45,379 bases of DNA. Source: Minisyncoccota bacterium (lineage in GTDB: Bacteria > Patescibacteriota > Minisyncoccia > UBA6257 > GWB1-50-10). The position numbers and the translations under genes are program-made. Positions within the stretch are counted from its first letter, which is position 1, and every line of letters begins with the position of its first letter. The notes beneath the pieces were generated by a model. The model made no database searches. It was not told the DNA's origin and saw only the letters and a list, made by a program, of their open reading frames with translations. Location: contig DATLZO010000018.1 in assembly GCA_035573955.1 (NCBI GenBank), positions 1 to 45,379 on the forward strand, read 5' to 3'. Shown here one piece after another: positions 368 to 19,865 of this stretch.

Positions 368-424
368 TTTGATTCGTATCTATATTTAAACCCAATTCTC
401 CGCCGGTTTCAATATAATAGTAGT

Positions 425-4602: not shown

Positions 4603-4657
4603 GGGTCTAGGGTTTAGCCAATAGCCGCTAGTGGCTAGACCCTAATCGCTAGTGGCT
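4602..4657. repeat. Eight degenerate 7-nt units forming a hairpin between convergent genes (terminator-like)
   Basis: AGGGTCT-AGGGTTT-AGCCAAT-AGCCGCT-AGTGGCT-AGACCCT-AATCGCT-AGTGGCT. AGGGTCTAG (4602-4610) pairs with CTAGACCCT (4635-4643). Confidence 0.65.
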
Positions 4658-5687
4658 ATCTTACGGCAAACGGATTTCTCGCGCCGTGAACCTCGAAGTG
4701 AAGGTGGCAACCAGTCGGCCCGTGAGTGTTGCCGGTCGAGCCGATCGTCGCGATAGGATCGCCCTGCGAAACGTAGTCACCGACCCTGACTAAGTTACGG
4801 TCGTTGTGGGCGTAGCGCGTCTTCGTTCCGTTCGGATGTTCGATGATTATGTAATTGCCGTACCCCTGATTCCAAAAACCATTCGATGATTCTTCTGCCA
4901 CCAATCCCTCGGCAGAAGCATATATCGGTTTGCCGCACTGATCGGCAATGTCGACGGCATTAGAATTATGGAGCGTGCCCCAGTTCCAACCGCGAGCCGG
5001 CAGCATGAAGTAACCTCCGAGATTCGGTAAATTCTTCGCGAGTTCCTTGTATGTCCCGCCCTCAATGGGCTTGGCATAAGGAAGAATGATATTCGCCCCA
5101 ACCTTGTCTAAAATTTTCTGGATTCCCGGATTGTAGTCCCGGATAGTTTGCGGATCTATTCGGTATCGGCTCGCGATGGATTCAAGCGAATCGCCTTCAC
5201 GGATTGTGTAAACAATTCCCGAAACGGGGAGAATAACAAGCTCCTCACCAACCTTAAGGATTGACCTCGTGTCGGGGTTCGCCCACTTTATGGTCTGGAC
5301 GTTCACACCGAAGGCGGCGGCGATCGAGGAAAGCGTGTCGCCGGCCTGGACCCGGTATTTCTGAAGACCATCACGGGTCTGAACCAGGTTACTCAGAGGA
5401 TGGGAGGCGCCGAGAACGGCGATGCCGTCGAAAACTATGGGCGTTTCCTCTCCGCTTCGGGAAAAGATTCCATCCGAAACGGCAAGCTCCGATCGGCCGA
5501 CGAAAAAACCGAGATCGCCCGCCGGTTCGTCGGGGCCACCGCTCGAGTAGGGTAAATCGCTCTCGGCGCGGCCATTCGGACCGAGATCAGCGAAGATTCC
5601 GAGAAGCGCGAGAGATAAGACGAAAAACAACGACCAGAAGTTAGTCGTCTTCAGAAAACCCGAAAGAACGGGTTTGATATGCTCCAA
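4656..5687 (-). CDS. Membrane-anchored LysM (x2) + M23 family metallopeptidase
   Basis: N-terminal TM helix. LysM repeats YRVQAGDTLSSIA..FGV and YTIREGDSLESIA..Y. M23 motifs AVDIA, IYASAEG, GYGNYIIIEH, YAH, GSTGNT and HLHFEV. Confidence 0.9.
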   Translation of the reverse strand: MEHIKPVLSGFLKTTNFWSLFFVLSLALLGIFADLGPNGRAESDLPYSSGGPDEPAGDLGFFVGRSELAVSDGIFSRSGEETPIVFDGIAVLGASHPLSNLVQTRDGLQKYRVQAGDTLSSIAAAFGVNVQTIKWANPDTRSILKVGEELVILPVSGIVYTIREGDSLESIASRYRIDPQTIRDYNPGIQKILDKVGANIILPYAKPIEGGTYKELAKNLPNLGGYFMLPARGWNWGTLHNSNAVDIADQCGKPIYASAEGLVAEESSNGFWNQGYGNYIIIEHPNGTKTRYAHNDRNLVRVGDYVSQGDPIATIGSTGNTHGPTGCHLHFEVHGARNPFAVR

Positions 5688-5715: not shown

Positions 5716-6507
5716 ATGGAACGCGCACACTCAAGAAGATTGGGCCAATATTTCCTGAAAAACCGAGAAAAGCTTAGGAAAATTGCAGCTTGTTTGGAGA
5801 TTGCGAACGGCGACACAATCGTCGAGATAGGCCCGGGGCACGGAGAGTTGACGAAAGAGTTGGTAGCTGGAATAGAGAATTTAGAATTTAGGTTGATTGC
5901 GATTGAGAAAGACGAGAAACTGGCCCGAGGTTTGCAAGAAAAATTCAAAAACCACAAGAGTATCCAAATCGTGCATGGTGACGCTCTGAAAATCCTCCCT
6001 GAATTGAAAATTGTAAATTGTAAATTGAAAATTACGGGGAATATTCCTTACTACATCACCGGAAAACTTTTGAGAACCATCGGCGACCTAATTACCAATT
6101 ACAAATTACCAATTACTACTTGCGTTCTCACAGTCCAGAAAGAAGTGGCGGAACGAATTTGCGCCAAACCCCCGCACATGAACCTTCTAGCCGCCGCCGT
6201 CCGGTTCTGGGCCGAGCCAAAAATTATAGATTACATTTCCAAAAAAGATTTCAAGCCCCAACCCGATGTCGATTCTGCCGTCGTCAAATTCGAAATTCGA
6301 AATTCGAAATTCGAAATTCAAGATTCTTACTATAAATTAGTAAGAATCTTGTTTAAGCAGCCGCGGAAAACAATTCTCAATAATTTAAGCGTCTTCAAAC
6401 CTAAAGAGGAAATCCTTCCTGTTCTCGAAAAAATGGGGGTAAATCCCGGCCTCCGGCCGCAAAATCTTAGTGTTGAAGACATTAAACTCCTGAGCCGAGT
6501 GCTATAA
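5716..6507 (+). CDS. rsmA: 16S rRNA m6,2A dimethyltransferase KsgA/RsmA
   Basis: LGQYFL, VEIGPGHG, IEKD, GDAL, GNIPYYIT, QKEVAERI and F.PQPDVDSAVV. Confidence 0.95.
   Translation: MERAHSRRLGQYFLKNREKLRKIAACLEIANGDTIVEIGPGHGELTKELVAGIENLEFRLIAIEKDEKLARGLQEKFKNHKSIQIVHGDALKILPELKIVNCKLKITGNIPYYITGKLLRTIGDLITNYKLPITTCVLTVQKEVAERICAKPPHMNLLAAAVRFWAEPKIIDYISKKDFKPQPDVDSAVVKFEIRNSKFEIQDSYYKLVRILFKQPRKTILNNLSVFKPKEEILPVLEKMGVNPGLRPQNLSVEDIKLLSRVL
5869..5894 (+). repeat. 7-nt tandem array 1 in ksgA
   Basis: GGAATAG-AGAATTT-AGAATTT-AGGTT (IENLEFRL). Confidence 0.6.
6002..6035 (+). repeat. 7-nt tandem array 2 in ksgA
   Basis: AATTGAA-AATTGTA-AATTGTA-AATTGAA-AATTAC (LKIVNCKLKIT). Confidence 0.85.
6090..6117 (+). 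repeat. 7-nt tandem array 3 in ksgA
   Basis: AATTACC-AATTACA-AATTACC-AATTACT (ITNYKLPITT). Confidence 0.85.
6286..6327 (+). repeat. 7-nt tandem array 4 in ksgA
   Basis: (AAATTCG)x4-AAATTCA-AGATTCT; 42 nt encoding KFEIRNSKFEIQDS. Confidence 0.9.
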
Positions 6508-6518
6508 TTATTGCAATC

Positions 6519-6932
6519 ATGAGACTATTCGCTCCCGTTTTGATTTTTGTCGCCATTGCCGGTTTCGCGTCGGCAGAAAAAGTCTCCGCTATCGGCGTTA
6601 TCAACCCTTTCGGCGGCAAGGTGGTCACCAATAGTGTCCACGGCGTTGTCTGCCCCGGCGCCGGACCAATTACCATCATTCCGATGGGAATTTCTCCGGT
6701 TGGTCCTTATGCCGTAACCGCCGGCACAAAACGTTATCCTTATGGAACGCCGACGCCGAGCAGTTGGATACTCGGCCTCTACGGGCCAATGTCGCCTATC
6801 TGTCACATTCCCGCCACCGCTTTCTCTCCTCCCATTCCCGTCCCTGCATTTCCGATAATTCTATTTGGAACATCAAAAACAATTCCTGCAAAAAAAACTA
6901 TTATCAAGGGAGGGGATTCGATTCCTAAGTAA
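6519..6932 (+). CDS. Small secreted Pro/Gly-rich hypothetical protein (PFGG motif, Cys pair) at the head of the T4SS-like region
   Basis: Signal-peptide-like N-terminus (MRLFAPVLIFVAIAGFASA), INPFGGKV, two Cys and LFGTS. Extended -10 TGcTATAAT at 6500-6508. Confidence 0.7.
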   Translation: MRLFAPVLIFVAIAGFASAEKVSAIGVINPFGGKVVTNSVHGVVCPGAGPITIIPMGISPVGPYAVTAGTKRYPYGTPTPSSWILGLYGPMSPICHIPATAFSPPIPVPAFPIILFGTSKTIPAKKTIIKGGDSIPK

Positions 6933-6947
6933 AAACCGGAAAAATAG

Positions 6948-6990
6948 TGTTATAATTAAAGCTAAGCCCGTGTTTTTAGAAAGGCTTAGT
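6948..6990 (+). promoter_or_regulatory. Extended -10 promoter followed by a hairpin in the leader of the T4SS-like operon
   Basis: TGtTATAAT at 6948-6956. CTAAGCC (6962-6968) pairs with GGCTTAG (6983-6989), followed by a U-rich tract. Confidence 0.45.
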
Positions 6991-7000
6991 TCTTGTTGAA

Positions 7001-7798
7001 TTGAAAATGATTTTTCTCAACAAAAAAATCATGTCCCTTGCCATAATCGCGACCGGCATTGTTCTGGCCGTAATGATAAATGTTTCTTCCCCCGGCAAAA
7101 AAGAAAAGGGCTTTAAAATCTCTTACCCTAATAAAGAAACCAGCCCCAATCTGGCCTTTCAAATAAACAGAAAGATAAACCAGCCTTTCCCCTCCAATCC
7201 CTCTTCAAACGGAGATTCCTTGACTGACTCGATCGCCAGAGCATATTTGGAAAAAATCCTCCAGAACAACCCGTCGGGGGCGCAGAAATCAGGCGACCAA
7301 ACCCAGCTTGTCATCCCCTCAAACGCTTCCTTTGAGGAAATAATGCAGAACTACCTGAAAACCGGTCTTGTTTGGACGCGGTTCGAAATAAGCGACATTA
7401 AAATAAGCCAGGATAATTCCCCCAAAAACAAGATGTCCTACCTGGAAACCCTGCGAAACATTCTCAATGACAGGAAAAGAACAATAGACGCCGAATTCGG
7501 CGCCTTAACGAAATTTCTGGAAAACAGCGAATCGGCTGAATTTGAAAAATATGTTGCCGGGGTTCAGGAACAACTCGGCAAACTTCTCGCCTTAGCCGCT
7601 CCTTCCGAAATACGTCTTTTCCATCTCCAAGCAGTGAACGCTTGGCAACATCAGCTAGCCGTCTATAAAGCCATTCTCGCGATAAAAGAGGATCCGGCGC
7701 GGGCACTTCTCGGGATAAACGATTTAGCCAACATGGCCGACGAGTTGAGCAATATAAACCTCACCGTTCAAAAAGAATATGAATCGCTCAAATCTTAA
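7001..7798 (+). CDS. Membrane-anchored alpha-helical hypothetical protein (T4SS-like operon)
   Basis: TTG start (alternative ATG at 7007), one N-terminal TM helix and a helical C-terminal part. Overlaps the next gene by 20 nt. Confidence 0.75.
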   Translation: MKMIFLNKKIMSLAIIATGIVLAVMINVSSPGKKEKGFKISYPNKETSPNLAFQINRKINQPFPSNPSSNGDSLTDSIARAYLEKILQNNPSGAQKSGDQTQLVIPSNASFEEIMQNYLKTGLVWTRFEISDIKISQDNSPKNKMSYLETLRNILNDRKRTIDAEFGALTKFLENSESAEFEKYVAGVQEQLGKLLALAAPSEIRLFHLQAVNAWQHQLAVYKAILAIKEDPARALLGINDLANMADELSNINLTVQKEYESLKS

Positions 7799-9455
7799 AA
7801 CCAGTTCGGGCAAACTGCTTGCCGCCGCGCTGATTGTCTTTTTCATTAGCGGTTCAATTCCTCTCAAAACAAAGGCTCAATCGGAGAGAGTCCTTGCCCA
7901 ATGCGCCCAGGAAATTTTTGGCATCAATGTATCTTCTTTGACAGGAAACATCAGTGTAGATCCTTCCAGTATTCTTGGGGGAGTGCCAGTAAAAGACGAG
8001 GGAGTTAAGGGGAGGATCGAACAAGCGGAGCAGAAGAAGTGCGTCGACCGATTAATGGATTTAGCCGTAACTATTGCAAGAAACATTCTCAAAAAGCGGA
8101 TTTTAGACACGATCGTTGATCAAACCATTAATTGGATTCAGGGCGAGGGCACACCCCGGTTTGTCACCGACTTCGGCGGATTTATCGAGGATGCTGCCGA
8201 CGCGGCGGCAGGCGACGTCATTCAAGAATTGGGAGCGGGAGCGCTTTGCCAACCTTTCCGAACCCGACTTTTACTCCAGCTTCAAGAGCCGGCGCCGTTT
8301 TCCCAACAGGTCAGCTGTACTCTAAGCAATGTTGTCGATAATATCGAAAACTTCTACGACGATTTTTCCCAAGGAGGTTGGATTGCTTACAACGAGGTTA
8401 TCCGACCTCGGAACAATTATTTCGGCGCATTGATCCTTTCTCTCGATGAAATCTCGACTCGTAGGGCGGCGGCACAGGAAGCCGCCCGCACCGAGGCTAT
8501 TGCCGGCCAGGGTTTCCGTAGTGAAACGGAGTGTCTCCAGTGGACCGGCATGACGCCGGAGGGCGGGGAAGTGGTTGTTGAAGTAGACGATGATTTTCCT
8601 TATCGCAACCCTTTGGTGCCTCCGCCAACCGACGGTTTCCGGTTAGACCCCGGTTTTCCCTGGCGATGCACAAAGCAGACGGTTACCACCCCCGGCAACG
8701 TGATTGCCGCGACCACAAATCAAACTCTTGGTCTTCATTCCAATTTTATTATTAACGCCGACGACCTTACCGAATACGCCGCGGCGATAATTGATGCCGG
8801 CATCAACCGGTTGATAAGAGAGGGGGTTGGCGGCTTGCGGCGAATAACAACCCAGGCGACAAGCCGGGGTTTCTCGAGCGAGGAAGACCTGCCTGGTAAT
8901 TTGAGGGAGGCGGGAAGAGGTTACACCAGCGATTCGGAAAATCAGCGTTTGGGCCAAACAAGGACGAGCATTCTTAATAATCTTTCGGATACCTTAACCC
9001 GCCTTGAAGGAGCAAGAACTAATTACCAGGATGTGAAAGAAGCGTTCGACGAACTTGAGCTCCTTGGCGGGCTTTTCAAAACGTGGTGCGACAACACGAC
9101 CGGCGGAGCGCAAAACCGGACTCTCCACCCGACAACCTGCGAGAGTTACACTGACGCGACGCTTACGGCCTTGAACCAAAGAGCGAGTTCGACAAAGGGA
9201 TTGGTTGACGAAAAACTTGAAGAAATCGATCCCTTAATGAATAGAATCTCCGCTCTTATTCCGCAAATCCAAAACCTCAACACCTCAAACGCCGACGCTC
9301 TCGCCACCCAGGCGACTAATCTTCTCCAAGAAGCTTCGGCTATTATCAATGATTCTGTCTCCCTAGTTGAAGAAATCCAAACCGAGGTCGAGAATACCCG
9401 GGCGCTACTTTCAAGCTGCCAGAGTTCTACGCCCTCTCCCGGAAGTTGTCCTTGA
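7779..9455 (+). CDS. Large exported protein with Cys pairs and a coiled-coil C-terminus; candidate VirB5/TrbJ-position subunit
   Basis: Signal peptide, GVPVKD, IVDQTINWIQG..TPRFVTD, ALCQPF, VSCTL and TTPG, with long helical repeats at the C-terminus. Lies directly upstream of the VirB6-like gene. The function call is inference. Confidence 0.7.
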   Translation: MNRSNLKTSSGKLLAAALIVFFISGSIPLKTKAQSERVLAQCAQEIFGINVSSLTGNISVDPSSILGGVPVKDEGVKGRIEQAEQKKCVDRLMDLAVTIARNILKKRILDTIVDQTINWIQGEGTPRFVTDFGGFIEDAADAAAGDVIQELGAGALCQPFRTRLLLQLQEPAPFSQQVSCTLSNVVDNIENFYDDFSQGGWIAYNEVIRPRNNYFGALILSLDEISTRRAAAQEAARTEAIAGQGFRSETECLQWTGMTPEGGEVVVEVDDDFPYRNPLVPPPTDGFRLDPGFPWRCTKQTVTTPGNVIAATTNQTLGLHSNFIINADDLTEYAAAIIDAGINRLIREGVGGLRRITTQATSRGFSSEEDLPGNLREAGRGYTSDSENQRLGQTRTSILNNLSDTLTRLEGARTNYQDVKEAFDELELLGGLFKTWCDNTTGGAQNRTLHPTTCESYTDATLTALNQRASSTKGLVDEKLEEIDPLMNRISALIPQIQNLNTSNADALATQATNLLQEASAIINDSVSLVEEIQTEVENTRALLSSCQSSTPSPGSCP

Positions 9456-9457
9456 TC

Positions 9458-11002
9458 ATGAAGATTAACAAGAAACTGGTCTTGTGGGGAACGGTCGCGA
9501 TTATCTTTTTATTGGTACCTTTTCAAACTCACGCACAAGCAGGGTCTCTTGCGCGTAGTGTTGTTAACTCTCTAATCGATTTTACTGCCACTGCCGTTGG
9601 AAAACTGTTCTACGTCGCCGCCTGGATTTTCAGCTTTATCGGCGGCCTGTTCTTTGCCCTCGGCGCTTTCTTTACCAGGATCGGTTTGGAAATGAACTTC
9701 AGATTAATGTCGCCCGAAAACACTCTCCTCACAATCGGGTGGAAAATTGTGCGGGATATGGCTAATCTCGGCTTCGTCTTGATGATAATAGTGATAGCCA
9801 TCGCCACCATCATCCGCTACGAATCCTACGGCAACAAAAAAATACTGACGAAACTCATCGCGGCGGCGATTCTCGTGAACTTCAGTTTGACAATCGCCGG
9901 CATCTTCATTGATTTCTCCCACGTTCTCACAAAATTTTTCTTCCAAAAAATTTCGACCAATCCTGCCGAAATTGCTTCCACTCTTGCCGGCGCCTTCAAC
10001 CCCCAAAAATTTTTTACCCCTCCTCCGTCCGATGCCAGAGACGCCGACATTCGTGGACCAAACCCGTTGGAAGCGCTGGCCGTCAGTTCCGCTTCCTTGG
10101 TTTTCGTGGTTGTTTTCACGGCTTTGGGAGCTCTCACAATGTTTGCCACCGCCGCAATGCTCTTTTTAAGATATTTATGGCTCACGTTCCTTATTATCCT
10201 CTCGCCGATCGTCTGGCTTTTTTGGGTGATTCCCGCCCTGGAAGGGCAGTGGAAAAAATGGTGGGATAAATTTTTCCAGTGGGTTTTCTTTGCGCCGGCA
10301 ATTTCATTTTTCATCTATCTCGCCTTGCTTAGCGCGGAGGGTTTGAGGCAGACGGATCCAATCTACAACGCCGGAAATATCTTCGGCGGCATCACGGGAA
10401 TAGTGGCGACAGTCGCCTCAACTGGCGCCCAAATGACGGTTCTTGTGGGCATCCTGCTCGGCGGTTTAATTGCCGCGCAGAAAATGGGGATTACTGGAGC
10501 TACGGCAGCTGTCAAAGGAGCAACTAGTATGCTTAGTGGAGTAAAGGATTGGGCCAGTTACAGGACTGGAGCGGCTTTCAAGGGTAGTAGAGCCGCCGGT
10601 TTTGTCTCAAAAGCGGCTACAGGCCTACAAAAATTCAGCAACTGGAAACCTCAGGGTAAATTTGCAAGATACGCATCCGCACCATTTAGAGCCCCGCTCC
10701 AAGGCCTAGCGGGCGGATTAGCCACTCTAGCCCAAGGTCCTAAAGCTAAAGGAAAACCAACAACACTTGCTGGTTTCATGCTGAAAGGCGCCTTGACCGG
10801 CTCCGGACTATGGAAAAAACCCAGCAAGAAGGCGAGAGGCAAAACAGCATCTGGAGAAGACGTGGAAATCGATTTGCCCGAAGAAGAGGGGGGTGAAGAA
10901 GAAGGAGATAGCAAACCAGCTACAACACCACAACCGAAATCACCCTTACAGGAAATTGATACAGAAAGAGAACAACACGGTGAAAGGCAAATTAACCTAT
11001 GA
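9458..11002 (+). CDS. VirB6/TrbL-like polytopic membrane protein
   Basis: Likely ATG at 9458. Several TM helices with GWKIVRDMANLGFVL, LIAAAILVNFSL, LRYLWLTFLIILSPIVWL and WKKWWDKFFQWVFFAP, the typical VirB6-like core. Basic/acidic low-complexity tail. Confidence 0.75.
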   Translation: MKINKKLVLWGTVAIIFLLVPFQTHAQAGSLARSVVNSLIDFTATAVGKLFYVAAWIFSFIGGLFFALGAFFTRIGLEMNFRLMSPENTLLTIGWKIVRDMANLGFVLMIIVIAIATIIRYESYGNKKILTKLIAAAILVNFSLTIAGIFIDFSHVLTKFFFQKISTNPAEIASTLAGAFNPQKFFTPPPSDARDADIRGPNPLEALAVSSASLVFVVVFTALGALTMFATAAMLFLRYLWLTFLIILSPIVWLFWVIPALEGQWKKWWDKFFQWVFFAPAISFFIYLALLSAEGLRQTDPIYNAGNIFGGITGIVATVASTGAQMTVLVGILLGGLIAAQKMGITGATAAVKGATSMLSGVKDWASYRTGAAFKGSRAAGFVSKAATGLQKFSNWKPQGKFARYASAPFRAPLQGLAGGLATLAQGPKAKGKPTTLAGFMLKGALTGSGLWKKPSKKARGKTASGEDVEIDLPEEEGGEEEGDSKPATTPQPKSPLQEIDTEREQHGERQINL

Positions 11003-11946
11003 TCGATTATTTCTTAATAGACGAGAAAAAAATAAGAGAGAGAGCACAATCAGTGCCGAAAACAATCGAGGTTCTTTTGAATTCCGAAAACACCCAAAAA
11101 ACGGTCCAAAGAATAGCGCGTGAGCATTTTCTCGACGAAGAAAGAACCACGACCCTCAGCCAACTAACGGGGCTTGTGCTCTTGGGTTTTGTCTCTTTAG
11201 AAGATCTTGCTCACGAGATAAGCGAAAACCTTCCCTTAAATCAGGTTCATTCGCGGCAACTCACTGAAGATTTAAAAGCAGCGATCTTTGAACCTATAAA
11301 AAGAGATTTAGAAAGAGTATACGAACCGGTAAGTAGGTTTGAAACAAAAGAATTTGTTCCGGTACCAGAAAAAAAAGAATTTATCGCGGATGAAAAAACA
11401 CCATTGGAAAAGATCGGCCAGGAGGGAATTAAAACAGCAATAAAAATTGAAGTAAGAGAAAAAGAACCTCCAATCGAAGGAGCGCCGCTCATCATCCACA
11501 AAGAGGATAGCATGCCCGCGCCGGTGCAAACGGAGAAAAAATCTTTCAAAGGCTTGGAGTTCCCGTTCGGTTTTTTCGGAAAGGAATCCAAATCCGCTCC
11601 CTCCGAACCAGTAAAGGTCCGGGTGGAAGGACCGACAAGCCGCTCGAAGGAGCTGCATGTCAAAAAAGAAGAGAAAAAAGTCGTCCATTACAGCGAGCTC
11701 CGAACCCCCCTTACTCCTTTCCAGAAAGCGGGTGACGAAATAATAAACCTGGAAACCTTCGACCGAAAACCCGCCGGAGTCATAATACCAATACCCGAGG
11801 AAGAACCGGCGAAGGAGGTTCCGATAAAACCCGTCGCGGAAACAACGAGGTTACCGATAGAAACCGATCCGGGGCCGCCGAAAAACTCACCGGAGCCTAA
11901 ACCCGAACCTAAAATAGAAGGTAACATCGTTGACCTAAGACAGTAA
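10999..11946 (+). CDS. Cytoplasmic hypothetical protein (helical N-domain, disordered Pro/Glu/Lys-rich C-terminus)
   Basis: ATGA overlap with the upstream gene. LTGLVLLG...EDL..EI...L.L...L..D....IF.PIK pattern; no TM helix. Confidence 0.75.
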   Translation: MIDYFLIDEKKIRERAQSVPKTIEVLLNSENTQKTVQRIAREHFLDEERTTTLSQLTGLVLLGFVSLEDLAHEISENLPLNQVHSRQLTEDLKAAIFEPIKRDLERVYEPVSRFETKEFVPVPEKKEFIADEKTPLEKIGQEGIKTAIKIEVREKEPPIEGAPLIIHKEDSMPAPVQTEKKSFKGLEFPFGFFGKESKSAPSEPVKVRVEGPTSRSKELHVKKEEKKVVHYSELRTPLTPFQKAGDEIINLETFDRKPAGVIIPIPEEEPAKEVPIKPVAETTRLPIETDPGPPKNSPEPKPEPKIEGNIVDLRQ

Positions 11947-11948
11947 CA

Positions 11949-12443
11949 ATGTCAACCTTCCAAGTCCCCCAATTCATAGAACAAAAGGCAAGAATAGTCG
12001 GGCCCCTCACGCTCGAGCAGTTCCTATATATGGCGGTTGCCGGCGCCCTAAGTTTTATTTCTTATTACATCTTCAACTTTCTTTTCTGGTTCATGATAAG
12101 CGCCGTCATGTTCATTATTGCAATCGGTCTCGCGTTCGTGAAAATAAACGGCCAAAGCCTGCCGCAGGTCTTGAAAGCAGGCTTCTTATATGTTTGGAAT
12201 CCGCGAACTTACACCTGGCAACGGGCAGTGAAAATCGATAAAACCGACCTATCCGAATTGGAAAAACTGGAGGAGATTAGAAACCGGATAGGTTTCCAAC
12301 AAAAATTGAAATCGATCGCCCAAAACATCGCGACCGGCAAGATATTCTCTCCGAAGAAGCTGCGCGAGGAAGAAGGGGAACAATTCCAGGTCGTAACCCG
12401 ATTAACGGGGGAAAAAGAAGTAGCCAAACGAGTCAATTACTAA
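11949..12443 (+). CDS. PrgI family (VirB3-like) membrane protein
   Basis: FQVPQFIEQKARIVGPLTLEQF followed by two TM helices, then KINGQSL...YVWNPRTYTW. Lies upstream of the VirB4-like gene. Confidence 0.85.
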   Translation: MSTFQVPQFIEQKARIVGPLTLEQFLYMAVAGALSFISYYIFNFLFWFMISAVMFIIAIGLAFVKINGQSLPQVLKAGFLYVWNPRTYTWQRAVKIDKTDLSELEKLEEIRNRIGFQQKLKSIAQNIATGKIFSPKKLREEEGEQFQVVTRLTGEKEVAKRVNY

Positions 12444-12456
12444 TAAGATTATTAAA

Positions 12457-13104
12457 ATGCCGGAGGTTTCATTACCAACACAAAAATTCGTAGAGGTCGC
12501 CGATATCAAAAACGGCGTGGTTTACCTCAAGAGGGGTGGCCTGCGCAAGGTGCTGATAGTAGGTGGCATCAATTTCGACCTCAAATCCGAGGCCGAACAA
12601 AACCTCATTCTCCAAAGCTTCCAGAATTTTTTGAACACGCTCGATTTCGGCGTCCAGTTCTTCATTCACTCGCGAAAAATCAACATCAATGAATACCTCG
12701 AAAAATTGAGGGCGCGGAAAGAGGAAGAACAAAACGAGCTGCTCAAAGTCCAAATCGAAGACTATGCCGAGTTTATCAGGGCGTTCGTTGAAGAAAATTC
12801 TATCATCAGCAAAGATTTCTTTGTGGTCGTCCCATACGACCCGATCACCGTTGCCGCCCAAGCCAAGGGCTTACTTGGCCTTTTTAAGAAGGCGCCGACA
12901 AAAAAAGAGGAGACAGCCAAAGAAGAAAGAGATAGAAAAAATATCGAGGAATTGGAACAACGCGCAAATGAAGTCGTTAGCGGTCTTGAGCAAATAGGCC
13001 TCCGGGCAACGGCTCTCGAAGACGAGGAATTAATTGAACTCTTCTACAACCTTTACAACCCCCAACTCGTAGAGAAAAAAGATCTGGAGATAGCAAAAAA
13101 ATAA
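12457..13104 (+). CDS. TrsD/TraC-like accessory protein of the VirB4 module
   Basis: GINFDLKSEAEQ...FQNFLNTLDF.VQFFI.SRK, DFFVVVPY and ELFYNLYNP. Sits between prgI and virB4, 1 nt before the virB4 start. Confidence 0.7.
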   Translation: MPEVSLPTQKFVEVADIKNGVVYLKRGGLRKVLIVGGINFDLKSEAEQNLILQSFQNFLNTLDFGVQFFIHSRKININEYLEKLRARKEEEQNELLKVQIEDYAEFIRAFVEENSIISKDFFVVVPYDPITVAAQAKGLLGLFKKAPTKKEETAKEERDRKNIEELEQRANEVVSGLEQIGLRATALEDEELIELFYNLYNPQLVEKKDLEIAKK

Positions 13105-13105
13105 A

Positions 13106-14869
13106 ATGGAATACGATACCGACAAGATAAAAATTACCAAACCCTACACGCCGGGCGAGGAAGATATCCCGAACGTCATCGCACCGGCCGGGATGGAGGT
13201 AAATTCCAACTACCTGAAAATCGGTGACTATTTCGCGAAGACTTTTTTCGTCTTCACTTACCCTCGTTACGTCGCGAGCGGCTGGTTCTCGCCGGTCATC
13301 AATCTCGCCGAGATGATGGATATTTCAATTATCATCCATCCGATGGACACGGCACTCGCCTTAAAAAACCTCCGAAAGAAAGTGGCACAAGTGGAAGCGG
13401 AAATTGCCGAGAAACAGGAGAAAGGGCTTGTGCGCGACCCGATACTCGAAACAGCCTATCAGGATATCGAGAACCTCCGCGACGCCCTCCAACAAGCTCG
13501 GGAAAAACTTTTCGAAGTCGGCGTTTATATAACTATCTACAGCTCGAATCTGGAGAACTTGAATAAACTTGAGAAAACACTGGAAAATCTCCTCGAGAGC
13601 AAGTTGGTCTACATAAAACCTGCTCTCTTCCGGCATCTCGAAGGCTTCAATTCGGTGCTTCCCATCGCCCAAGACAGCCTTGGTGTCCGGACCCCATTGA
13701 ATTCGAGCCCCACCTCGTCGCTTTTCCCTTTCATCTCGCCGGATCTCACCTCTGACAAGGGCATCCTCTACGGCGTGAACCTCCACAACAATTCTCTCGT
13801 CATCTTCGACCGCTTTTCTCTCGAGAACGCAAACAGCGTCGTTTTCGCTAAATCCGGCAGCGGCAAATCATACACCACAAAACTCGAGATAATTCGATCA
13901 TTAATGATGGGCACGAACGTTATCGTCATTGACCCCGAGAATGAGTACGAGAACCTAGCGAACGCCGTGGGGGGGAGTTACTTCCGGATATCTCTCACCT
14001 CCCAGAACCACGTTAATCCCTTTGATATCCCCATCATCCCGCAAGGCGAGGAGCCGGCTGACGTCTTCAAATCGCACATCTTGAACCTCGCCGGTCTCGT
14101 AAAACTCATGCTCGGGGAAGTGACGCCCGAGGAAGACGCCATTTTGGACCGTGTTATCACCGAAACCTATGCCTCGCGCGACATCACCGCCGAAAATTTC
14201 GGCAAGATTGTGGAGCTCCGCCCGCTGCTCCTTGAAGATCTCCAGACCATTCTTCAAAACACCGAGGGCGGTCGGACGCTCGGAAACCGGCTCGATAAAT
14301 TTACTCATGGTTCCTACGCCGGTTTTACCAACGCGCCGACGAACGTTGATATCAAGAACCGCCTGATCGTCTTTTCCATCCGGGATCTGGAGGAAGAACT
14401 GCGGCCAATTGCAATGTATATCGTCCTCAATTTCGTCTGGAATCTGGTGAGAGGAGAACTTAGGCGGCGACTCCTTATAATCGATGAGGCTTGGTGGATG
14501 ATGAAATACAAGGATTCGGCATCTTTCCTTTTCGGTCTCGTGAAAAGGGCGAGAAAGTACTTTCTGGGCGTCACTACTATTACCCAAGACGTGGAAGATT
14601 TCTTGAGATCCGATTACGGCCGGCCCATTGTCACCAACTCCTCGCTCCAACTGCTGATGAAGCAGTCGCCAACTTCGATAAACTCGGTGGCCCAGGCTTT
14701 TAACTTGACCGAGGGTGAGAAAACTTTTCTTCTGGAATCGGCAGTCGGCGAGGGGCTTTTCTTTGCAGGATTAAAGCATGTGGCCATTAAAGTCATTGCT
14801 TCCTACACCGAGGACCAGATCATTACCACCAACCCGGAGCAGATACTGGAACAAAAGGGGTTAAAATAA
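13106..14869 (+). CDS. virB4: VirB4/TrsE-like conjugation/T4SS ATPase
   Basis: GILYGVN, DRFSLENANSVVF, Walker A AKSGSGKS, VIVIDPENEY, Walker B LLIIDEAW, KRARKY, TITQDVEDF and GEGLFF. Confidence 0.9.
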   Translation: MEYDTDKIKITKPYTPGEEDIPNVIAPAGMEVNSNYLKIGDYFAKTFFVFTYPRYVASGWFSPVINLAEMMDISIIIHPMDTALALKNLRKKVAQVEAEIAEKQEKGLVRDPILETAYQDIENLRDALQQAREKLFEVGVYITIYSSNLENLNKLEKTLENLLESKLVYIKPALFRHLEGFNSVLPIAQDSLGVRTPLNSSPTSSLFPFISPDLTSDKGILYGVNLHNNSLVIFDRFSLENANSVVFAKSGSGKSYTTKLEIIRSLMMGTNVIVIDPENEYENLANAVGGSYFRISLTSQNHVNPFDIPIIPQGEEPADVFKSHILNLAGLVKLMLGEVTPEEDAILDRVITETYASRDITAENFGKIVELRPLLLEDLQTILQNTEGGRTLGNRLDKFTHGSYAGFTNAPTNVDIKNRLIVFSIRDLEEELRPIAMYIVLNFVWNLVRGELRRRLLIIDEAWWMMKYKDSASFLFGLVKRARKYFLGVTTITQDVEDFLRSDYGRPIVTNSSLQLLMKQSPTSINSVAQAFNLTEGEKTFLLESAVGEGLFFAGLKHVAIKVIASYTEDQIITTNPEQILEQKGLK

Positions 14870-14873
14870 GGAT

Positions 14874-15254
14874 ATGGAGGACAAGAACAATAAAATCAGC
14901 GAGAGTGAGATGATAGTAATCGGCGGATTGATGTTTCTCACCGATGGTATTTGCCTCCTTATAGATTTCACCGTGGTGGGTCCGGCCTTCACTCCCGTCA
15001 TCCAAAGCGCGGCGACTTTCACGAGCGCCTGGTGGTTTAGTATGAAGGGCGATTCAAGCGCCTTTAATTTTGGGAAAATGGGGGCGCAGTTAGGCGCCAA
15101 CATCCTGCCGTGGCTCCCGACCCTCACCGTAGCTTTCGCCATTAATACTTTCACATTCAACCATCCTCGACTTACTAAAACTGTCGGTACCGTCGTAGGG
15201 AAAATCAAACCGTCGGCCGGAACCGCAGTTAAAATATTAAAGAAAGCGGCATGA
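14874..15254 (+). CDS. Small membrane protein (T4SS-like operon)
   Basis: 126 aa with two to three hydrophobic segments (..ILPWLPTLTVAF..). ATGA overlap with the next gene. Confidence 0.7.
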   Translation: MEDKNNKISESEMIVIGGLMFLTDGICLLIDFTVVGPAFTPVIQSAATFTSAWWFSMKGDSSAFNFGKMGAQLGANILPWLPTLTVAFAINTFTFNHPRLTKTVGTVVGKIKPSAGTAVKILKKAA

Positions 15255-15934
15255 GAAAATTTTCACAACTCCTAACAATTATTGTCACGGTATTGGCTGT
15301 TGGTTATTGGTTATCAACTGCCCGCGCTCAGTCGCCGACCCAAGTCATTATTACCTGGCAAGCCATAAACTTCTATCCGGCCGACTACAAAGGCAAGGCG
15401 GCGGTAACGCCGAGAACGCCGGTTGCGGTCGCGGCTGAAGTTTTAAAAAACGGAAAATTACTTGACTTGAAAAAATCAAATTTCACCTGGCTTCTCGACG
15501 AAAAACTTCTGGGTCGGGGCGAAGGATTGAAAGAAACATCGTTTACAGCGAAAAAGCCCGCTGGTGATAGCCACCTTCTCCGTTTGACGGTCAAATTTGA
15601 AAACGAGTCTTTTGAAAAAGCGGTTCGAATTCCGGTGGAACGGCCGCGGGTGGTGGTAAAAACCGGCCTTGCCAAAAACACCGTCGAGCCGGGGGGTAAA
15701 ATAAATCTCGTCGCAATACCCTATTTCTTTAATGTCAGTTCTCTTGATGGACTTAATTTCTCGTGGGAAATAAACGACGAGAAAATAGTCGGTCCTTCCT
15801 CTAATCAACTGACCTTGAATGTTGGTTCGCCGCAGAGCGAATCCCAAAAATCGATAAGAATAACATCGCTTATTCAAAACAGGACCAATATACTGGAATC
15901 GGCCAGTGAGACCGTCCAAATTAAAATGCCTTAA
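15251..15934 (+). CDS. Secreted protein with Ig/PKD-like beta-sandwich domains
   Basis: Signal peptide ending ARA-Q, IITWQA..FYP..YKGKA, FTWLLD, AIPYFF and FSWEIND; alternating beta-strand pattern. Confidence 0.7.
   Translation: MRKFSQLLTIIVTVLAVGYWLSTARAQSPTQVIITWQAINFYPADYKGKAAVTPRTPVAVAAEVLKNGKLLDLKKSNFTWLLDEKLLGRGEGLKETSFTAKKPAGDSHLLRLTVKFENESFEKAVRIPVERPRVVVKTGLAKNTVEPGGKINLVAIPYFFNVSSLDGLNFSWEINDEKIVGPSSNQLTLNVGSPQSESQKSIRITSLIQNRTNILESASETVQIKMP
15291..15318 (+). repeat. Degenerate 7-nt array in a signal-peptide coding region
   Basis: TATTGGC-TGTTGGT-TATTGGT-TATCAAC (VLAVGYWLST). Confidence 0.55.
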
Positions 15935-15936
15935 AA

Positions 15937-17097
15937 ATGAAAAGAAACATTTCCAAAATATGTCTGTTTATTTTGACAATCGCGTTCGTCGGTTTCTTAG
16001 GCAACGTTAACCAAGCCAGAGGATTGGAATTTGACCTCAATTACACGCCGCCTTGCATCGGCGGAGAGGTTGGAGGTAATTGTCCTTCTGATGAGCAAAT
16101 TAGTGGCAGTATTGCCTCCTATATCAAAAGAATCTACATGTTCAGCGTCGGTATCGCCGGAGTGCTTGCGGTCGGAATGATTGTGGTCGGGGCAATTATG
16201 ATCTCCGTTTCGGCCGGTAACCCCGACAAACAGCGGGAAGGCCGCGACTACATCACTTCCGCCCTCTGGGGTGTAGCGCTCCTTTTAGGCTCCTACCTGA
16301 TTTTGAGGACCATCAACCCGCGGTTAGTGAACTTGAGCGAATTGGAAAGAACAACAAGGGAAGCGAGGCAAGTAAGAATATTAACGTACGAGCTGGCCGC
16401 AGGAGCCGCTACAACCACTTGTCCGACTGAAGGCCAAACCGGTTGTTTTTTTAATGAAAATAATGAAGCTTGTCCTTTTGATCTGACAAGTGACGCGGTT
16501 TGTACCTCTTTGGATTCAAGAACATCGGCGTGTGATAACGTTCCGGATACTAATGCCGCAGGTGAAACCCTTTCCCCTTCCCCGCGATACCCCTGCGCTT
16601 GTTGGAATTGCAAAGTTCTAAATACGGCCGACTATCCTGTCAAAACAGGAGCTTGTCCCGGCACTTTGGCAAGGTGCTTCCTAGAAGAGGATACCTTGGA
16701 TGCCTTTAAGGATTTCATTGAAGAATTAAGGGATTTCCCTTCAATCCGGTTGGGTTCAGACGGACCGGGAGTATGGAGGGTAACGGAAGCCTTCCCGCCC
16801 GCCGTACGGCATTCCTCCCTCTCCCACTACAACGGTCGCGGTTTTGACTTCGGCCGGGGCGGAACAAACTTCCCAACATTCCCTTCCCCGACGGACGCGG
16901 GTTTCTGCAATGAGATTCGCCTCATAGCCACGGCGGCGGCCAGGCAATTTAATAGAATTTACATAGAAGCTCTTCCGGACAACTACTGCAGGGATTTGAA
17001 TCCCCCAACCAATCCCATACAGGGATTAACGGGCGTCGAACGACGGACATTTCAGACAACAACTGGTTTTCACATTCATGTGGAAAATCCAAAGTAA
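15937..17097 (+). CDS. VirB2/TrbC-type (T4SS) pilin fused via a Cys-rich linker to a LAS/M15-like zinc peptidase domain
   Basis: Signal peptide. Pilin hairpin YIKRIYMFSVGIAGVLAVGMIVVGAI..SAGNPDK..EGRDYITSALWGVALLLGSYLILRTINP.L. Ten Cys in the linker. C-terminal WRVTEAFPP, H297-x6-D304 (HYNGRGFD) and H379-x-H381 (FHIHVE). Confidence 0.8.
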   Translation: MKRNISKICLFILTIAFVGFLGNVNQARGLEFDLNYTPPCIGGEVGGNCPSDEQISGSIASYIKRIYMFSVGIAGVLAVGMIVVGAIMISVSAGNPDKQREGRDYITSALWGVALLLGSYLILRTINPRLVNLSELERTTREARQVRILTYELAAGAATTTCPTEGQTGCFFNENNEACPFDLTSDAVCTSLDSRTSACDNVPDTNAAGETLSPSPRYPCACWNCKVLNTADYPVKTGACPGTLARCFLEEDTLDAFKDFIEELRDFPSIRLGSDGPGVWRVTEAFPPAVRHSSLSHYNGRGFDFGRGGTNFPTFPSPTDAGFCNEIRLIATAAARQFNRIYIEALPDNYCRDLNPPTNPIQGLTGVERRTFQTTTGFHIHVENPK

Positions 17098-17103
17098 TCA
17101 GCT

Positions 17104-18234
17104 ATGAAATCTGTTCAAAAAAAACTAATATTATCGGTAATCATTGTGATTATCTTAAGTCTTGGTTTCTACCTGATTTGGAAAAAGATTGCCGGCACAC
17201 AAGAGGGTGATGATTTTCTGCCAGCAAACGGTTTTCCGGAAAATCCTTTAGACGGCGGTGATGTTACGAAAACATCCGCTGGACCAACTCTTAAGAGGTT
17301 ATCCGACCAGGAAGTCACCGATTTTTGGTTGGTTGAAGAAACCGGAGAAATTTACTACATAAATTATTCGGGCAATATCCTTATCGCCAAAGACGGTCCC
17401 GATTTGGAGGTCTCAAAACAGAACGTGAGCGCGATAAATTCCTCCGAAACAAGTCCGTCTACAAGAAAAATTCTCGTTGCTTTTAGCGATCCTCTCTCGC
17501 CCCAGTGGGGAATTTTTGACATCTTTGATAAAGTCTGGCGGCCACTACCTTCCGAAATATTGGTTGCTTCTTGGGGGGCAAGCGATGACAAGTTAGTCGC
17601 ATTGGTAAAAAATAGCGGTAAAACAGATTTGGTTGAAGTCGATCTGACCAAAACACCGCCCGCTAACAAAATCTTGTTGGGTGATTTTGGGTTTAAGGAT
17701 ATTCGTCTCATCTTTAACCCGCCGGACAAGATTCTTATCGTCGAGAAAACTTCGGCTGATTATCAAGGTAGGTTATGGCAATTCAATATCTTAACTCAAA
17801 ACTTAAATCTTATGATATCAGGAGAAAAAGGTCTTTCACTTTACGCCTCGCCGCAGAAGGATTTTTTTCTTAAATATTCTTCTGATAATGGTTTGGATAT
17901 TCTAACTCCTGAGCTCGCACCAACAATGGAGTCTCCATTAAACACTCTTCCGCAAAAATGCGGTTTTGGTGAGGGTGCGGCAATATATTGTTTTGAACCA
18001 ATAGTTTGGCCTCCCGACGCCGAGTTGCCGGATGACTATCTTGTGGGGAAAATATACACTGTCGATGATTTATTTGAGATAGACCCGCTGGGCGAAGGTC
18101 GTTACAGCAGAGTCTTTAGAAGTGGTGAAAATAACCTTCAGTTGGTTGATGGTGAAAAACCTACGCTGGCGGGGGGAAATGTTTATTTCGTGAATAGGTT
18201 TGATAACCGACTCTACTCGGTGACGCTACCGTGA
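17104..18234 (+). CDS. Membrane-anchored extracellular protein, probable beta-propeller
   Basis: One N-terminal TM helix, then repeated short beta-strand blades (SPSTRKIL, SWGASDDKL, ASPQKD), a PQKC...YC motif and DDY. Confidence 0.65.
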   Translation: MKSVQKKLILSVIIVIILSLGFYLIWKKIAGTQEGDDFLPANGFPENPLDGGDVTKTSAGPTLKRLSDQEVTDFWLVEETGEIYYINYSGNILIAKDGPDLEVSKQNVSAINSSETSPSTRKILVAFSDPLSPQWGIFDIFDKVWRPLPSEILVASWGASDDKLVALVKNSGKTDLVEVDLTKTPPANKILLGDFGFKDIRLIFNPPDKILIVEKTSADYQGRLWQFNILTQNLNLMISGEKGLSLYASPQKDFFLKYSSDNGLDILTPELAPTMESPLNTLPQKCGFGEGAAIYCFEPIVWPPDAELPDDYLVGKIYTVDDLFEIDPLGEGRYSRVFRSGENNLQLVDGEKPTLAGGNVYFVNRFDNRLYSVTLP

Positions 18235-18235
18235 T

Positions 18236-18667
18236 TTAAGAGATGTGTTTGATTATCACCCGACGTTCCTTATTGAGGCCTACGCTCTCAGTTGTTAGTT
18301 CCGGGTGGGTAGTTATCTCCATATGGATCAGCCGGCGCTCGTAGGCGTTCATTGGGGGGAGTTCCACATCGGATTTGGTAAGCATCGCTTTGTGAGCGGC
18401 AGCTCGCGCGAGCTCGGTGATCAGCCGTTCTCGCTCTTTGCGATAGTAATTTAAATCGACAACATAGGGGCCGTTATTCTCGCCTTTTACCATCAAATTC
18501 AGAATATGCTCAATCGCTGGCAAAACAACCGCCACTCTTGATTGAATGAGATCGTCATCAATGAAAAGGGAGATCTTGCGGTGTTCCGCGTCAAGCTCCA
18601 CCCGCGGTTCCTCGAAACCCATTAGGGCCACCATTTTCTTTGTTTTTTGAATCAGATTCTCGGTCAT
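18236..18667 (-). CDS. jag: Short Jag/KhpB(EloR)-like KH-R3H RNA-binding protein
   Basis: VVDLNYYRKERE, LPPMNAYERRLIH (R3H) and TESVG...ERRVII; canonical position after yidC. Confidence 0.85.
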   Translation of the reverse strand: MTENLIQKTKKMVALMGFEEPRVELDAEHRKISLFIDDDLIQSRVAVVLPAIEHILNLMVKGENNGPYVVDLNYYRKERERLITELARAAAHKAMLTKSDVELPPMNAYERRLIHMEITTHPELTTESVGLNKERRVIIKHIS

Positions 18668-19334
18668 GGGTTAGTTTCGGCAATTTTTTATTGATAATAA
18701 CCTGCTGTAAGAGAGAAAACAAGGTCGAGGCCGACCAGTAGATTCCAAGCGCCGCAGGAAAATTTAAGAGGATAACAAATGTAAAGGCCGGCGCCACATA
18801 CACCATCATCTTCATTTGAAAGAACATTTGTCCGCTGCGCTCACTTTTCGGCTGCGCGCCCATTGTCATCTTTCCCAAGAGATATTGCAGAAGAGCGGCA
18901 ACAACAGCGAGTAGAACACTCTTTGATCCGAGATCGAGAATTCCAAGGAAATCGTGCGCCGTGAAAATGTTATTGCCAATTTCCTTCAAGAAAATCTGGT
19001 AGAGAGCGATTAAGATCGGTAGTTGGATAAGAAGTAAAAGAAAACCAGAAAAGGGGTTTAGGCGATGTTTTTTATATAGGTCCATGAGCGCTCTGGCCTG
19101 CTGTTCTTTATTGTCCTTATGATCAAGTTGAATTTTCTGGATATGAGGTTGAAGCCGTTGCATCAAACTCTGATCTTTGGCGCTCTTGTAAAATAAAGGG
19201 AAAAGAACAAGCCGAACCAAGAAGGTTAAAAGAATTATGGAAACGCCGAGGTCGTGAAAAGCGATATTTTGGTAGATAAAAACCAAAACCGCGAGGAGTG
19301 GTTCATAAAGGTACGTATTGAAGATTTCGCTCAT
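18591..19334 (-). CDS. yidC: YidC/Oxa1 membrane protein insertase (short form)
   Basis: YEPLL, DLGVSIILLT..VRLVLFPL, LQP.I..IQ, NPFSGFL..LIQLPILIALY and FPAALGIYW. Confidence 0.95.
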   Translation of the reverse strand: MSEIFNTYLYEPLLAVLVFIYQNIAFHDLGVSIILLTFLVRLVLFPLFYKSAKDQSLMQRLQPHIQKIQLDHKDNKEQQARALMDLYKKHRLNPFSGFLLLLIQLPILIALYQIFLKEIGNNIFTAHDFLGILDLGSKSVLLAVVAALLQYLLGKMTMGAQPKSERSGQMFFQMKMMVYVAPAFTFVILLNFPAALGIYWSASTLFSLLQQVIINKKLPKLTHDRESDSKNKENGGPNGFRGTAGGA

Positions 19335-19576
19335 TTTATGCTCTCCAAAATCTCTCTCTTAATATCGGCGAAGGTGGCTTCGGCTGCTCCTGGTCTCGCA
19401 ATAACCGAAAAATAACCTTCTTTTTCCTTTAAAATTGGTCTCATTACCGCCCTGATCCGCCGTTTCAGAAGGTTCCTTGTGACTGCTTTCCTCGCGACGC
19501 CTTTCCCAATTGATATAACCAAACGTCCGCCCGAGACTCCTTGAAATCTCCTCCTAACAATGATGAGGGGTGGCAT
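19331..19576 (-). CDS. rnpA: RNase P protein subunit, N-terminally shortened (81 aa)
   Basis: RLVISIGKGVARKAVTRNLLKRRIR (RNR-type motif); lies between rpmH and yidC. Confidence 0.85.
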   Translation of the reverse strand: MPPLIIVRRRFQGVSGGRLVISIGKGVARKAVTRNLLKRRIRAVMRPILKEKEGYFSVIARPGAAEATFADIKREILESIK

Positions 19577-19579
19577 CTC

Positions 19580-19717
19580 TCAGACGGCGAGTTGTTTCCT
19601 GCCTTTCCGGCGCCTCCGCCTTAAAACGGATCGGCCGCTTGGTTTACTTTGCCTTGAGAGGAATCCGTGAGTAGATTTTCTTTTCCTTTTATTCGGTTGA
19701 TACGTTCTTTTGGGCAT
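19580..19717 (-). CDS. rpmH: 50S ribosomal protein L34 (not in the ORF track)
   Basis: Hand translation [45 protein letters not shown], with KRTYQP and HGF motifs; divergent from dnaA. Confidence 0.97.
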
Positions 19718-19776
19718 GGGTTAATGAAACTATCTTTGAAAAATTATTGCAAGCCGACCTTGTCTCGCTCCACAAC

Positions 19777-19785
19777 TTATTCACA
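19777..19785 (+). promoter_or_regulatory. DnaA box upstream of dnaA
   Basis: TTATTCACA matches the consensus TT(A/T)TNCACA. Confidence 0.75.
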
Positions 19786-19865
19786 ATTAAAACACAAATC
19801 TCTTTTTGCATCAATGTTGCAACGGAACGATAATTCCTTATCATAGTAGAACCGAGACAAATCTC

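Follow-up and report, generated by a model that had tools for sequence, protein, structure and literature searches.

A core type IV secretion operon beside the replication origin of a Minisyncoccota bacterium, a probable domesticated relative of monoderm conjugation machines

What does a conjugation-like machine do in a bacterium that keeps its genes on the chromosome, next to the replication origin? This question is raised by a stretch of DNA from an ultra-small Minisyncoccota bacterium of the Paceibacteria/CPR, the complete contig C18 (GenBank DATLZO010000018.1; 45,379 bp, hereafter the window) of a 592-kb metagenome-assembled genome (MAG) that is in 26 contigs and was scored 100% complete. 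At positions 6519–18234, a scan for open reading frames (ORFs) gave twelve co-oriented genes (o1–o12), all on the + strand, whose junctions are overlaps of 4–20 nt or gaps of 1–13 nt, the sole exception being a 68-nt gap after o1. The coordinates are exactly those of the twelve tightly coupled genes in which an earlier reading of this DNA (the original prediction) had seen a type IV secretion system (T4SS)-like operon, taken to be a domesticated conjugation channel used for host contact, effector delivery, or nucleic acid uptake rather than plasmid transfer. We conclude, with a probability of roughly 85%, that the locus is a Patescibacteria-type chromosomal T4SS, a system that was derived long ago from the monoderm MPF_FATA conjugation machine and that now, as a core operon, occupies a site next to the replication origin.

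The membrane core of this machine is present and intact, consisting of a VirB6-like protein, PrgI/VirB3, and a VirB4 that is split in two. Searches with Pfam and NCBIfam models identified these components and a pilin:

9446–11002, + strand: o4, polytopic VirB6/TrbL-like channel protein with about eight transmembrane (TM) segments and a hydrophilic C-terminal tail (CD3337/EF1877 profile, E = 2e-4)
11949–12443, + strand: o6, PrgI/VirB3-like membrane anchor for VirB4, with two TM segments (PF12666, 30.9 bits, above cut-off)
12457–13104, + strand: o7, TrsD-like protein, a VirB4 N-terminal domain encoded as a separate gene (matches to TrsD model NF041427 and to VirB4 models in their N-terminal part)
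13106–14869, + strand: o8, VirB4 ATPase of the CD1110 (MPF_FATA) family (NF045971, 371.5 bits against a cut-off of 325)
15937–17097, + strand: o11, signal peptide, VirB2-type pilin hairpin, Cys-rich linker, and probable LAS zinc peptidase domain (PF18895 T4SS_pilin, aa 58–117)

The VirB4 ATPase o8 also matches the TraG P-loop family (PF19044, E = 3.6e-26), its best models are the MPF_FATA types CD1110 and Mbov_0397, and its NTP-binding motifs are intact (Walker A, AKSGSGKS; Walker B, LLIIDE). Apart from the TrsD model, o7 matches VirB4 models in their N-terminal part only. We ruled out that o7 and o8 are the pieces of a frameshifted VirB4 pseudogene: in 74 relatives, TrsD and VirB4 are separate ORFs in 68, where all three relative reading frames occur, and are fused in a single ORF of 768–794 aa in the other 6. 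By itself, o4 is only weakly VirB6-like, and the assignment is made because its homologues support it, 5 of 43 matching PF04610 TrbL/VirB6 (best E = 1.9e-7) and 2 of 43 matching TrbL_4. The pilin domain of o11, which is encoded three genes after virB4, scores 28.1 bits with PF18895, above the cut-off. With this backing for o4, the profile searches bear out every component that the original prediction had named (VirB6-like, PrgI, TrsD-like, VirB4, and VirB2-type pilin). Searches of the operon proteins against Pfam, NCBIfam, and PDB profiles detected no recognizable VirB8 homologue of the PrgL/TraM type.

How is this operon inherited? Among species-representative genomes, we found 585 stretches that encode relatives of o8, and we compared gene order in the best 80, which are Paceibacteria MAGs that include Jorgensen-, Harrison-, Kaiser-, Vogel-, and Taylorbacteria and whose VirB4 is 57–82% identical to o8. 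When every gene of the window was compared with these 80 loci using tblastn, o8 was found in 80/80, o7 in 78/80, o6 in 74/80, o4 in 45/80, and o11 in 44/80, followed by o12 (37/80), o10 (31/80), o3 (29/80), and o5 (18/80); of the flanking genes, yidC was found in 55/80, dnaA in 52/80, and ksgA in 38/80. Relative to virB4, the side on which each match lies is always that seen in the window, and the strand also agrees, save for one of the 74 o6 matches; wherever ksgA was found (38 relatives), its side and strand are unchanged. Across an evenly drawn sample of the class, the VirB4 gene is present in 292 of 301 genomes (273 of the 279 high-quality ones) and is nearly always single copy. VirB4 identity correlates with DnaA identity (Pearson r = 0.87, n = 52), and FastTree phylogenies of the two proteins from 50 shared loci have 26 of 47 splits in common, giving a normalized Robinson-Foulds (RF) distance of 0.45; when labels were shuffled 500 times, this distance averaged 0.996 and never fell below 0.957. 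The operon is thus single copy, almost universal in the class, and co-diverging with dnaA.

The nearest plasmid-borne VirB4 proteins belong to the CD1110 family of Firmicutes and Actinobacteria and are 30–36% identical to o8; membership in the Patescibacteria clade was judged from these identities (57–82% in Paceibacteria, 30–36% on plasmids) and not from a tree with outgroups. Given the distribution, synteny, tree congruence, and distance from plasmid systems, the operon is a long-standing core feature that has descended vertically rather than a patchy acquisition. Recent horizontal acquisition was ruled out by the first three of these.

If the machine descends from a conjugation system, is any of the apparatus for mobility still present? 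The relaxase families PF03432 (Relaxase), PF02486 (Rep_trans), PF01076 (Mob_Pre), PF08751 (TrwC), and PF07514 (TraI_2) have no match in the whole genome, in keeping with the original prediction, in which no relaxase was seen. No direct or inverted repeats flank the locus, no tRNA gene is near it (the only one on the contig is 23 kb away), and no integrase is encoded among the scanned contig ORFs of at least 120 aa, so that the claim that integrase and att repeats are lacking also stands. The GC content of the locus is similar to that of its surroundings. Neither outcome that would have made the locus an ordinary mobile element, a cognate relaxase with integrase boundaries or a patchy and incongruent distribution, was found. 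The operon encodes no coupling protein, nor does any other part of the 45-kb contig, and the system has no VirB1-type transglycosylase or CHAP protein. The original prediction that VirD4-type coupling proteins (T4CPs) are missing therefore holds for the locus and the contig. It does not hold for the genome, which encodes three VirD4/TrwB-family ATPase paralogs (TrwB_AAD_bind/T4SS-DNA_transf matches; 35–46% mutual identity) on other contigs:

C15:16671–19019: T4CP-like ATPase of 782 aa whose N-terminal part is a membrane domain; a type IV pilus cluster (PilB-like gene at 9171–10886) lies just upstream
C3:33835–35658, − strand: T4CP-like ATPase of 607 aa with a zf_Tbcl_2 zinc finger
C12:5725–7176: T4CP-like ATPase of 483 aa; the preceding gene, for a membrane protein (region C12:3812–7176), is homologous to the N-terminal domain of the C15 protein

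None of the three adjoins a T4SS or relaxase gene. This arrangement fits the published picture, in which a Patescibacteria genome has about two T4CP homologues and these are mostly remote from virB4 (PMC12102498). Together with the vertical core inheritance, the lack of detectable relaxases and element boundaries supports the view that the operon is a domesticated, or exapted, monoderm conjugation channel that would not function in plasmid transfer and may serve host contact, effector delivery, or uptake.

One component, o11, is more than a plain pilin: a pilin hairpin (aa ~58–126) and a C-terminal domain (aa ~240–386) are joined by a Cys-rich linker. Hydropathy gives the order signal peptide, TM segment, positively charged loop, TM segment, and Cys-rich domain, predicting that the C-terminal domain is outside the cell. 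Only the hairpin (aa ~55–135) is conserved among relatives; their ORFs at the corresponding position vary in length between 99 and 538 aa, and the T4SS_pilin domain was present in each of the 34 that were tested. An exhaustive HMMER search with the C-terminal domain retrieved 22 proteins, about ten of which share the pilin-plus-C-domain architecture; a word-index homology search with the same domain returned the query alone, and a sequence search of the PDB gave no matches. In 12 aligned family members, W280, E284, P287, P288, H292, H297, Y298, G300, D304, C324, C351, H379, and H381 are invariant, and H297-x6-D304 with H379-x-H381 make up the pattern H-x6-D ... H-x-H. When the family profile was compared with the PDB, the matches were Hedgehog N-terminal domains only (E = 0.011–0.4), aligned on the WRxTE...HYxGxxxD zinc motif.

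The motifs and profile matches suggest that the C-terminal domain of o11 is probably a LAS (Hedgehog/DD-peptidase-type) zinc peptidase domain. The AlphaFold2 (AF2) model of the domain has predicted local distance difference test (pLDDT) values of 85–96, and the assignment is probable rather than proven because Foldseek searches of the o11 model against the PDB and BFVD found no LAS protein at a significant level; the relevant matches that scored best, also not significant, were to a phage DD-carboxypeptidase (E = 1.4) and an archaeal conjugative pilin (E = 2.8). No Pfam or NCBIfam M15 or M23 model matches o11 itself. Independent support for a peptidase comes from one relative (L070:12170–12982), whose pilin hairpin, encoded at the equivalent place in the operon, is joined to a Peptidase_M23 domain (E = 2e-33), M23 likewise belonging to the LAS group. 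Two others (L013:14129–15601 and L057:13129–14097) carry Hedgehog-like HY.G...D / H.H motifs on the operon's pilin hairpin, the L057 motif, HYEGRAVD, being identical to the Sonic hedgehog zinc motif. In most other relatives, the hairpin carries unassigned Cys-rich C-terminal domains. If o11 is such a peptidase, it may supply the wall-cutting function that VirB1 provides elsewhere. The Cys-rich linker of o11 (aa ~170–235) resembles a repeat that occurs 6–10 times in two very large metagenome proteins (P0014, 1962 aa; P0016, 1443 aa), which suggests a mobile Cys-knot module.

Although o11 is the only pilin gene in the operon, it is not the only one in the genome. Three short VirB2-like pilin genes (142, 129, and 133 aa; PF18895, 38–49 bits) lie in tandem on the − strand of another contig (C10:14799–16048), apart from the T4SS operon and next to gyrA and a gene for a solute-binding-protein-like protein. 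The genome has four pilin-domain genes in all, and the three short ones, which are canonical, are more likely than o11 to encode the major pilins.

The remaining operon genes encode accessory proteins:

6519–6932, + strand: o1, small Gly/Pro-rich protein with a signal peptide (N-terminal hydrophobic segment; no family match; 2/80 relatives)
7001–7798, + strand: o2, bitopic membrane protein whose single TM segment is N-terminal (hydropathy; no family match; 6/80 relatives)
7779–9455, + strand: o3, exported, mostly helical protein of 558 aa with a C-terminal bundle of three long helices (signal peptide; AF2)
10999–11946, + strand: o5, cytoplasmic protein with a conserved N-terminal domain of ~110 aa and a Pro/Glu/Lys-rich tail (no TM segment)
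14874–15254, + strand: o9, small membrane protein (hydropathy; 5/80 relatives)
15251–15934, + strand: o10, exported beta-rich protein (signal peptide)
17104–18234, + strand: o12, N-terminal membrane anchor (TM segment 8–26) and TolB-like beta-propeller; last gene of the operon

The original prediction had counted five uncharacterized exported or membrane proteins. The count is six (o1, o2, o3, o9, o10, and o12), which with cytoplasmic o5 makes seven unnamed proteins. For o12, a profile of 31 homologues matches TolB in the PDB (E = 4.7e-13). The AF2 model of o3 is mediocre overall (mean pLDDT 64), with high confidence for the helices at 373–549; Foldseek and PDB profile searches returned coiled-coil noise only, and the protein is possibly an extracellular scaffold or stalk. 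PDB profile searches with o10 gave only weak matches, to Ig-like decoration and surface proteins, so that an Ig-like fold is possible. Alignment of o5 revealed the conserved motifs APLILHEE and VVHYSE, and neither Pfam nor PDB profiles matched it.

The operon is flanked as follows:

5716–6507, + strand: ksgA, rRNA adenine dimethylase (PF00398, E = 4.6e-46), ending 11 nt 5′ of o1
18236–21245: jag (R3H), yidC, and rnpA (all − strand), followed by dnaA (+ strand) (Pfam matches; replication-origin neighborhood)

Since jag, yidC, rnpA, and dnaA come straight after o12, the T4SS genes sit between ksgA and the origin genes, as had been predicted. It is possible that ksgA is co-transcribed with o1–o12; a scan for promoters and terminators gave counts close to those expected from shuffled sequence, so that operon boundaries could not be called. 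The rest of the contig consists of housekeeping genes: a phosphoglucosamine-mutase-like gene, comM, an M23/LysM peptidase gene, dnaN, a class A penicillin-binding protein gene, ruvABC, polA, fpg, mur genes, and the gene for RNase J. Just upstream of ksgA (window 3067–5687), comM (Mg-chelatase-like, transformation-associated) is paired with a divergent gene for a LysM-LysM-M23 peptidase, and this pair is retained in the closest relatives only (6/80 loci). A GlmM-like phosphoglucomutase/phosphomannomutase frame is divided into overlapping + strand ORFs, one encoding domain I (window 296–820) and the next encoding domains II–IV (817–1620); the division could be genuine or could result from a frameshift or a sequencing error. 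A PilB/GspE-type T2SSE ATPase of 558 aa (window 31825–33501, − strand; PF00437, E = 8e-118) is encoded 14 kb from the T4SS operon and is a second copy, the other being on C15.

How does this locus compare with what has been described? As the original prediction noted, T4SS-like loci are known in Patescibacteria. Transposon sequencing showed that a homologous cluster (SEML1_0006–0019) of Southlakia epibionticum is essential for epibiotic growth; that cluster is Gram-positive-like, with pilins and without recognizable coupling or relaxase proteins, and protein export or another non-conjugative role was proposed (Wang et al., 2023; PMC10633639). A later survey found VirB4 in 2,417 of 3,035 Patescibacteria genomes, as a monophyletic clade nested in MPF_FATA, with TrsD, PrgI/VirB3, VirB6, and VirB2-like pilins near virB4 (Quiñonero-Coronel et al., 2025; PMC12102498). 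In that survey, relaxases were found in just 103 genomes, T4CPs lay far from virB4 at about two homologues per genome and were not essential in S. epibionticum, and the T4SS neighborhood in Paceibacteria and Microgenomatia comprised DnaA, DnaN, RnpA, KsgA, and RpmH. In cultures enriched for Paceibacteria, T4SS pilins were found to rank with the unknown genes that have the highest expression (Kuroda et al., 2024; PMC10936435), and a 2025 review presents the Patescibacteria system as a recent addition to the T4SS superfamily (PMC12857230).

Our locus shares the features of this clade (PMC12102498; PMC10633639). TrsD, VirB4, PrgI/VirB3, VirB6, and a VirB2-like pilin are encoded together, with o6 and the TrsD/VirB4-N protein o7 directly upstream of virB4; a pilin array (C10) is found elsewhere in addition to o11; relaxases are missing and T4CP homologues are distant from virB4; and the position is chromosomal, in the ksgA/rnpA/dnaA context reported for Paceibacteria. 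The system, its lack of relaxase, its place beside the origin, and the idea of an exapted channel were thus already published between 2023 and 2025 (PMC10633639; PMC12102498). Nothing differs in kind, and what we add is modest: the fusions of pilin with probable LAS or with M23 domains at the o11 position, the TolB-like propeller o12 that closes the operon, and the TrsD-VirB4 fusion in a minority (6/74) of relatives, none of which these papers mention. The terms fusion (in this sense), M15, Hedgehog, propeller, and TolB do not occur in the 2025 survey (PMC12102498), and we found no description of a LAS domain fused to a VirB2-type pilin hairpin in the literature searched.

Like the monoderm MPF_FATA systems (CTn2/CD1110; TrsD-TrsE of pGO1/pSK41; PrgH-PrgI-PrgJ of pCF10), the locus encodes a VirB4 that scores above the CD1110-family cut-off, a split TrsD-like N-terminal domain, PrgI, and a CD3337/EF1877-type membrane protein. 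Unlike them, it has no relaxase, linked T4CP, VirB1-type transglycosylase/CHAP protein, or PrgL/TraM-type VirB8 that profile searches could recognize; it is accompanied by VirB2-like pilins, which are absent from Gram-positive systems; its VirB4 is only 30–36% identical to theirs; and it is a core chromosomal operon rather than a mobile element. Bordetella Ptl and Brucella VirB also have a VirB4 without a dedicated T4CP and export protein instead of conjugating (PMC12102498; PMC12857230), but these belong to the diderm MPF_T type, have an outer-membrane core of VirB7/9/10, and move known substrates, whereas the envelope here is monoderm. Like the LAS zinc hydrolases (MEROPS M15 and M23; the Sonic hedgehog N-terminal domain), o11 has an H-x6-D ... 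H-x-H pattern, which is invariant in its own family; its PDB profile matches are confined to Hedgehog, and L070 has M23 in the same place. It differs in matching no M15 or M23 family model and in the lack of a significant Foldseek match.

From these parts, a working model can be envisioned. PrgI and the VirB6-like protein would dock a VirB4 hexamer at the membrane, and VirB4 would pull VirB2-like pilins out of the membrane (the three C10 pilins and, as a minor component, o11), so that a pilus or conduit is assembled. Outside the cytoplasm, the LAS-type domain of o11 would cut peptidoglycan cross-links locally, either in the cell's own wall or in that of the host, as a functional equivalent of VirB1. 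The part that crosses the wall may consist of the TolB-like propeller o12, the beta-rich o10, and the helical o3. By analogy with the S. epibionticum cluster that is essential for epibiotic growth, we infer that the machine would serve host interaction, through transfer of protein or another macromolecule or through attachment, and not plasmid conjugation. A more speculative extension, which we consider rather unlikely, is that o11-type genes in Paceibacteria T4SS operons encode modular, pilin-anchored warheads. The hairpin would insert in the pilus or channel, while an exchangeable extracellular C-terminal domain (Hedgehog-like LAS peptidase in o11, L013, and L057; M23 in L070; various Cys-rich domains elsewhere) would cut or bind the host wall, making the T4SS a wall-breaching device for feeding or attachment in which swaps of the C-terminal domain track host range.

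Several points weigh against our view of the locus as a domesticated host-interaction machine. In this uncultured MAG, the machine is known from sequence alone, and essentiality is shown only in Saccharimonadia, which are a different class. The relaxase search covered five Pfam families, the MOBC and MOBM classes not being among them, and the three T4CP-family ATPases elsewhere in the genome could provide classical coupling, by recruitment of DNA or protein. The roles of o1, o2, o3, o5, o9, and o10 are guesses. The LAS call for o11 is based on motifs and weak profile matches (E about 0.01), and the Foldseek comparison of its AF2 model was not significant.

Could the operon instead build only a pilus? 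In this case, the VirB4 machine would assemble VirB2-like pili that display o11 for attachment to the host, and nothing would be translocated. The number of pilin-domain genes in so small a genome, the high expression of T4SS pilins in Paceibacteria cultures (PMC10936435), and the lack of a coupling protein in the operon are consistent with this idea, and the C-terminal domains of the operon pilin differ between species, as expected of host-facing surfaces. We nonetheless think it doubtful, as the VirB6-like channel protein is conserved and VirB6 is required for substrate passage in the T4SSs that have been studied (PMC12857230), and as type IV pili are already available to these bacteria for adhesion (PilB-like ATPases are encoded at window 31825–33501 and on C15). 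A different use of the channel would be to import DNA or derived nucleotides from the host or environment, as do the ComB T4SS of H. pylori and archaeal Ced, thereby feeding an organism that does not synthesize nucleotides. The absence of five relaxase families from the genome makes DNA export unlikely, comM lies 2 kb upstream, and T4SS loci of the ABY1 class sit with comF, recG, and radA (PMC12102498). There is also a weak match of o8 to the model for the DNA-import ATPase CedB (E = 1.5e-9), but it is far under the cut-off and spans the shared ATPase fold only, and the adjacency of comM is retained in just 6 of 80 relatives. Moreover, deletion of comEC in S. epibionticum ends competence but not viability, whereas the T4SS is essential (PMC12857230); essentiality therefore does not stem from ComEC-dependent uptake, and we regard DNA import as the function of this operon as quite improbable.

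It is hardly credible that the locus is, or is left over from, an ordinary integrative and conjugative element with a relaxase, coupling protein, and integrase that were missed or are located elsewhere. One could point to the VirD4/TrwB-family ATPases on C15, C3, and C12, to an assembly in 26 contigs, and to the relaxase classes outside our search. However, the gene set is a single-copy core feature found in 292 of 301 genomes of the class, occupies a fixed chromosomal site between ksgA and yidC/dnaA, and co-diverges with DnaA; its borders have no repeats, tRNA, or integrase and its GC content is like that of its surroundings. The T4CP-like genes are unlinked to any relaxase, and in the literature such genes are non-essential and thought to be exapted (PMC12102498).

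We therefore return to the reading of this locus as an ancient, Patescibacteria-type T4SS that has become a core chromosomal operon. The window confirms published findings in one more Paceibacteria genome, and its use lies in the annotation of accessory subunits. The Patescibacteria T4SS matters since it is the first T4SS shown to be essential to its own carrier bacterium, and concrete candidates to supply the VirB1- and VirB8-type functions that are missing from this machine are the fusion of a pilin hairpin with a probable LAS peptidase, the TolB-like propeller, and the exported protein with long helices.

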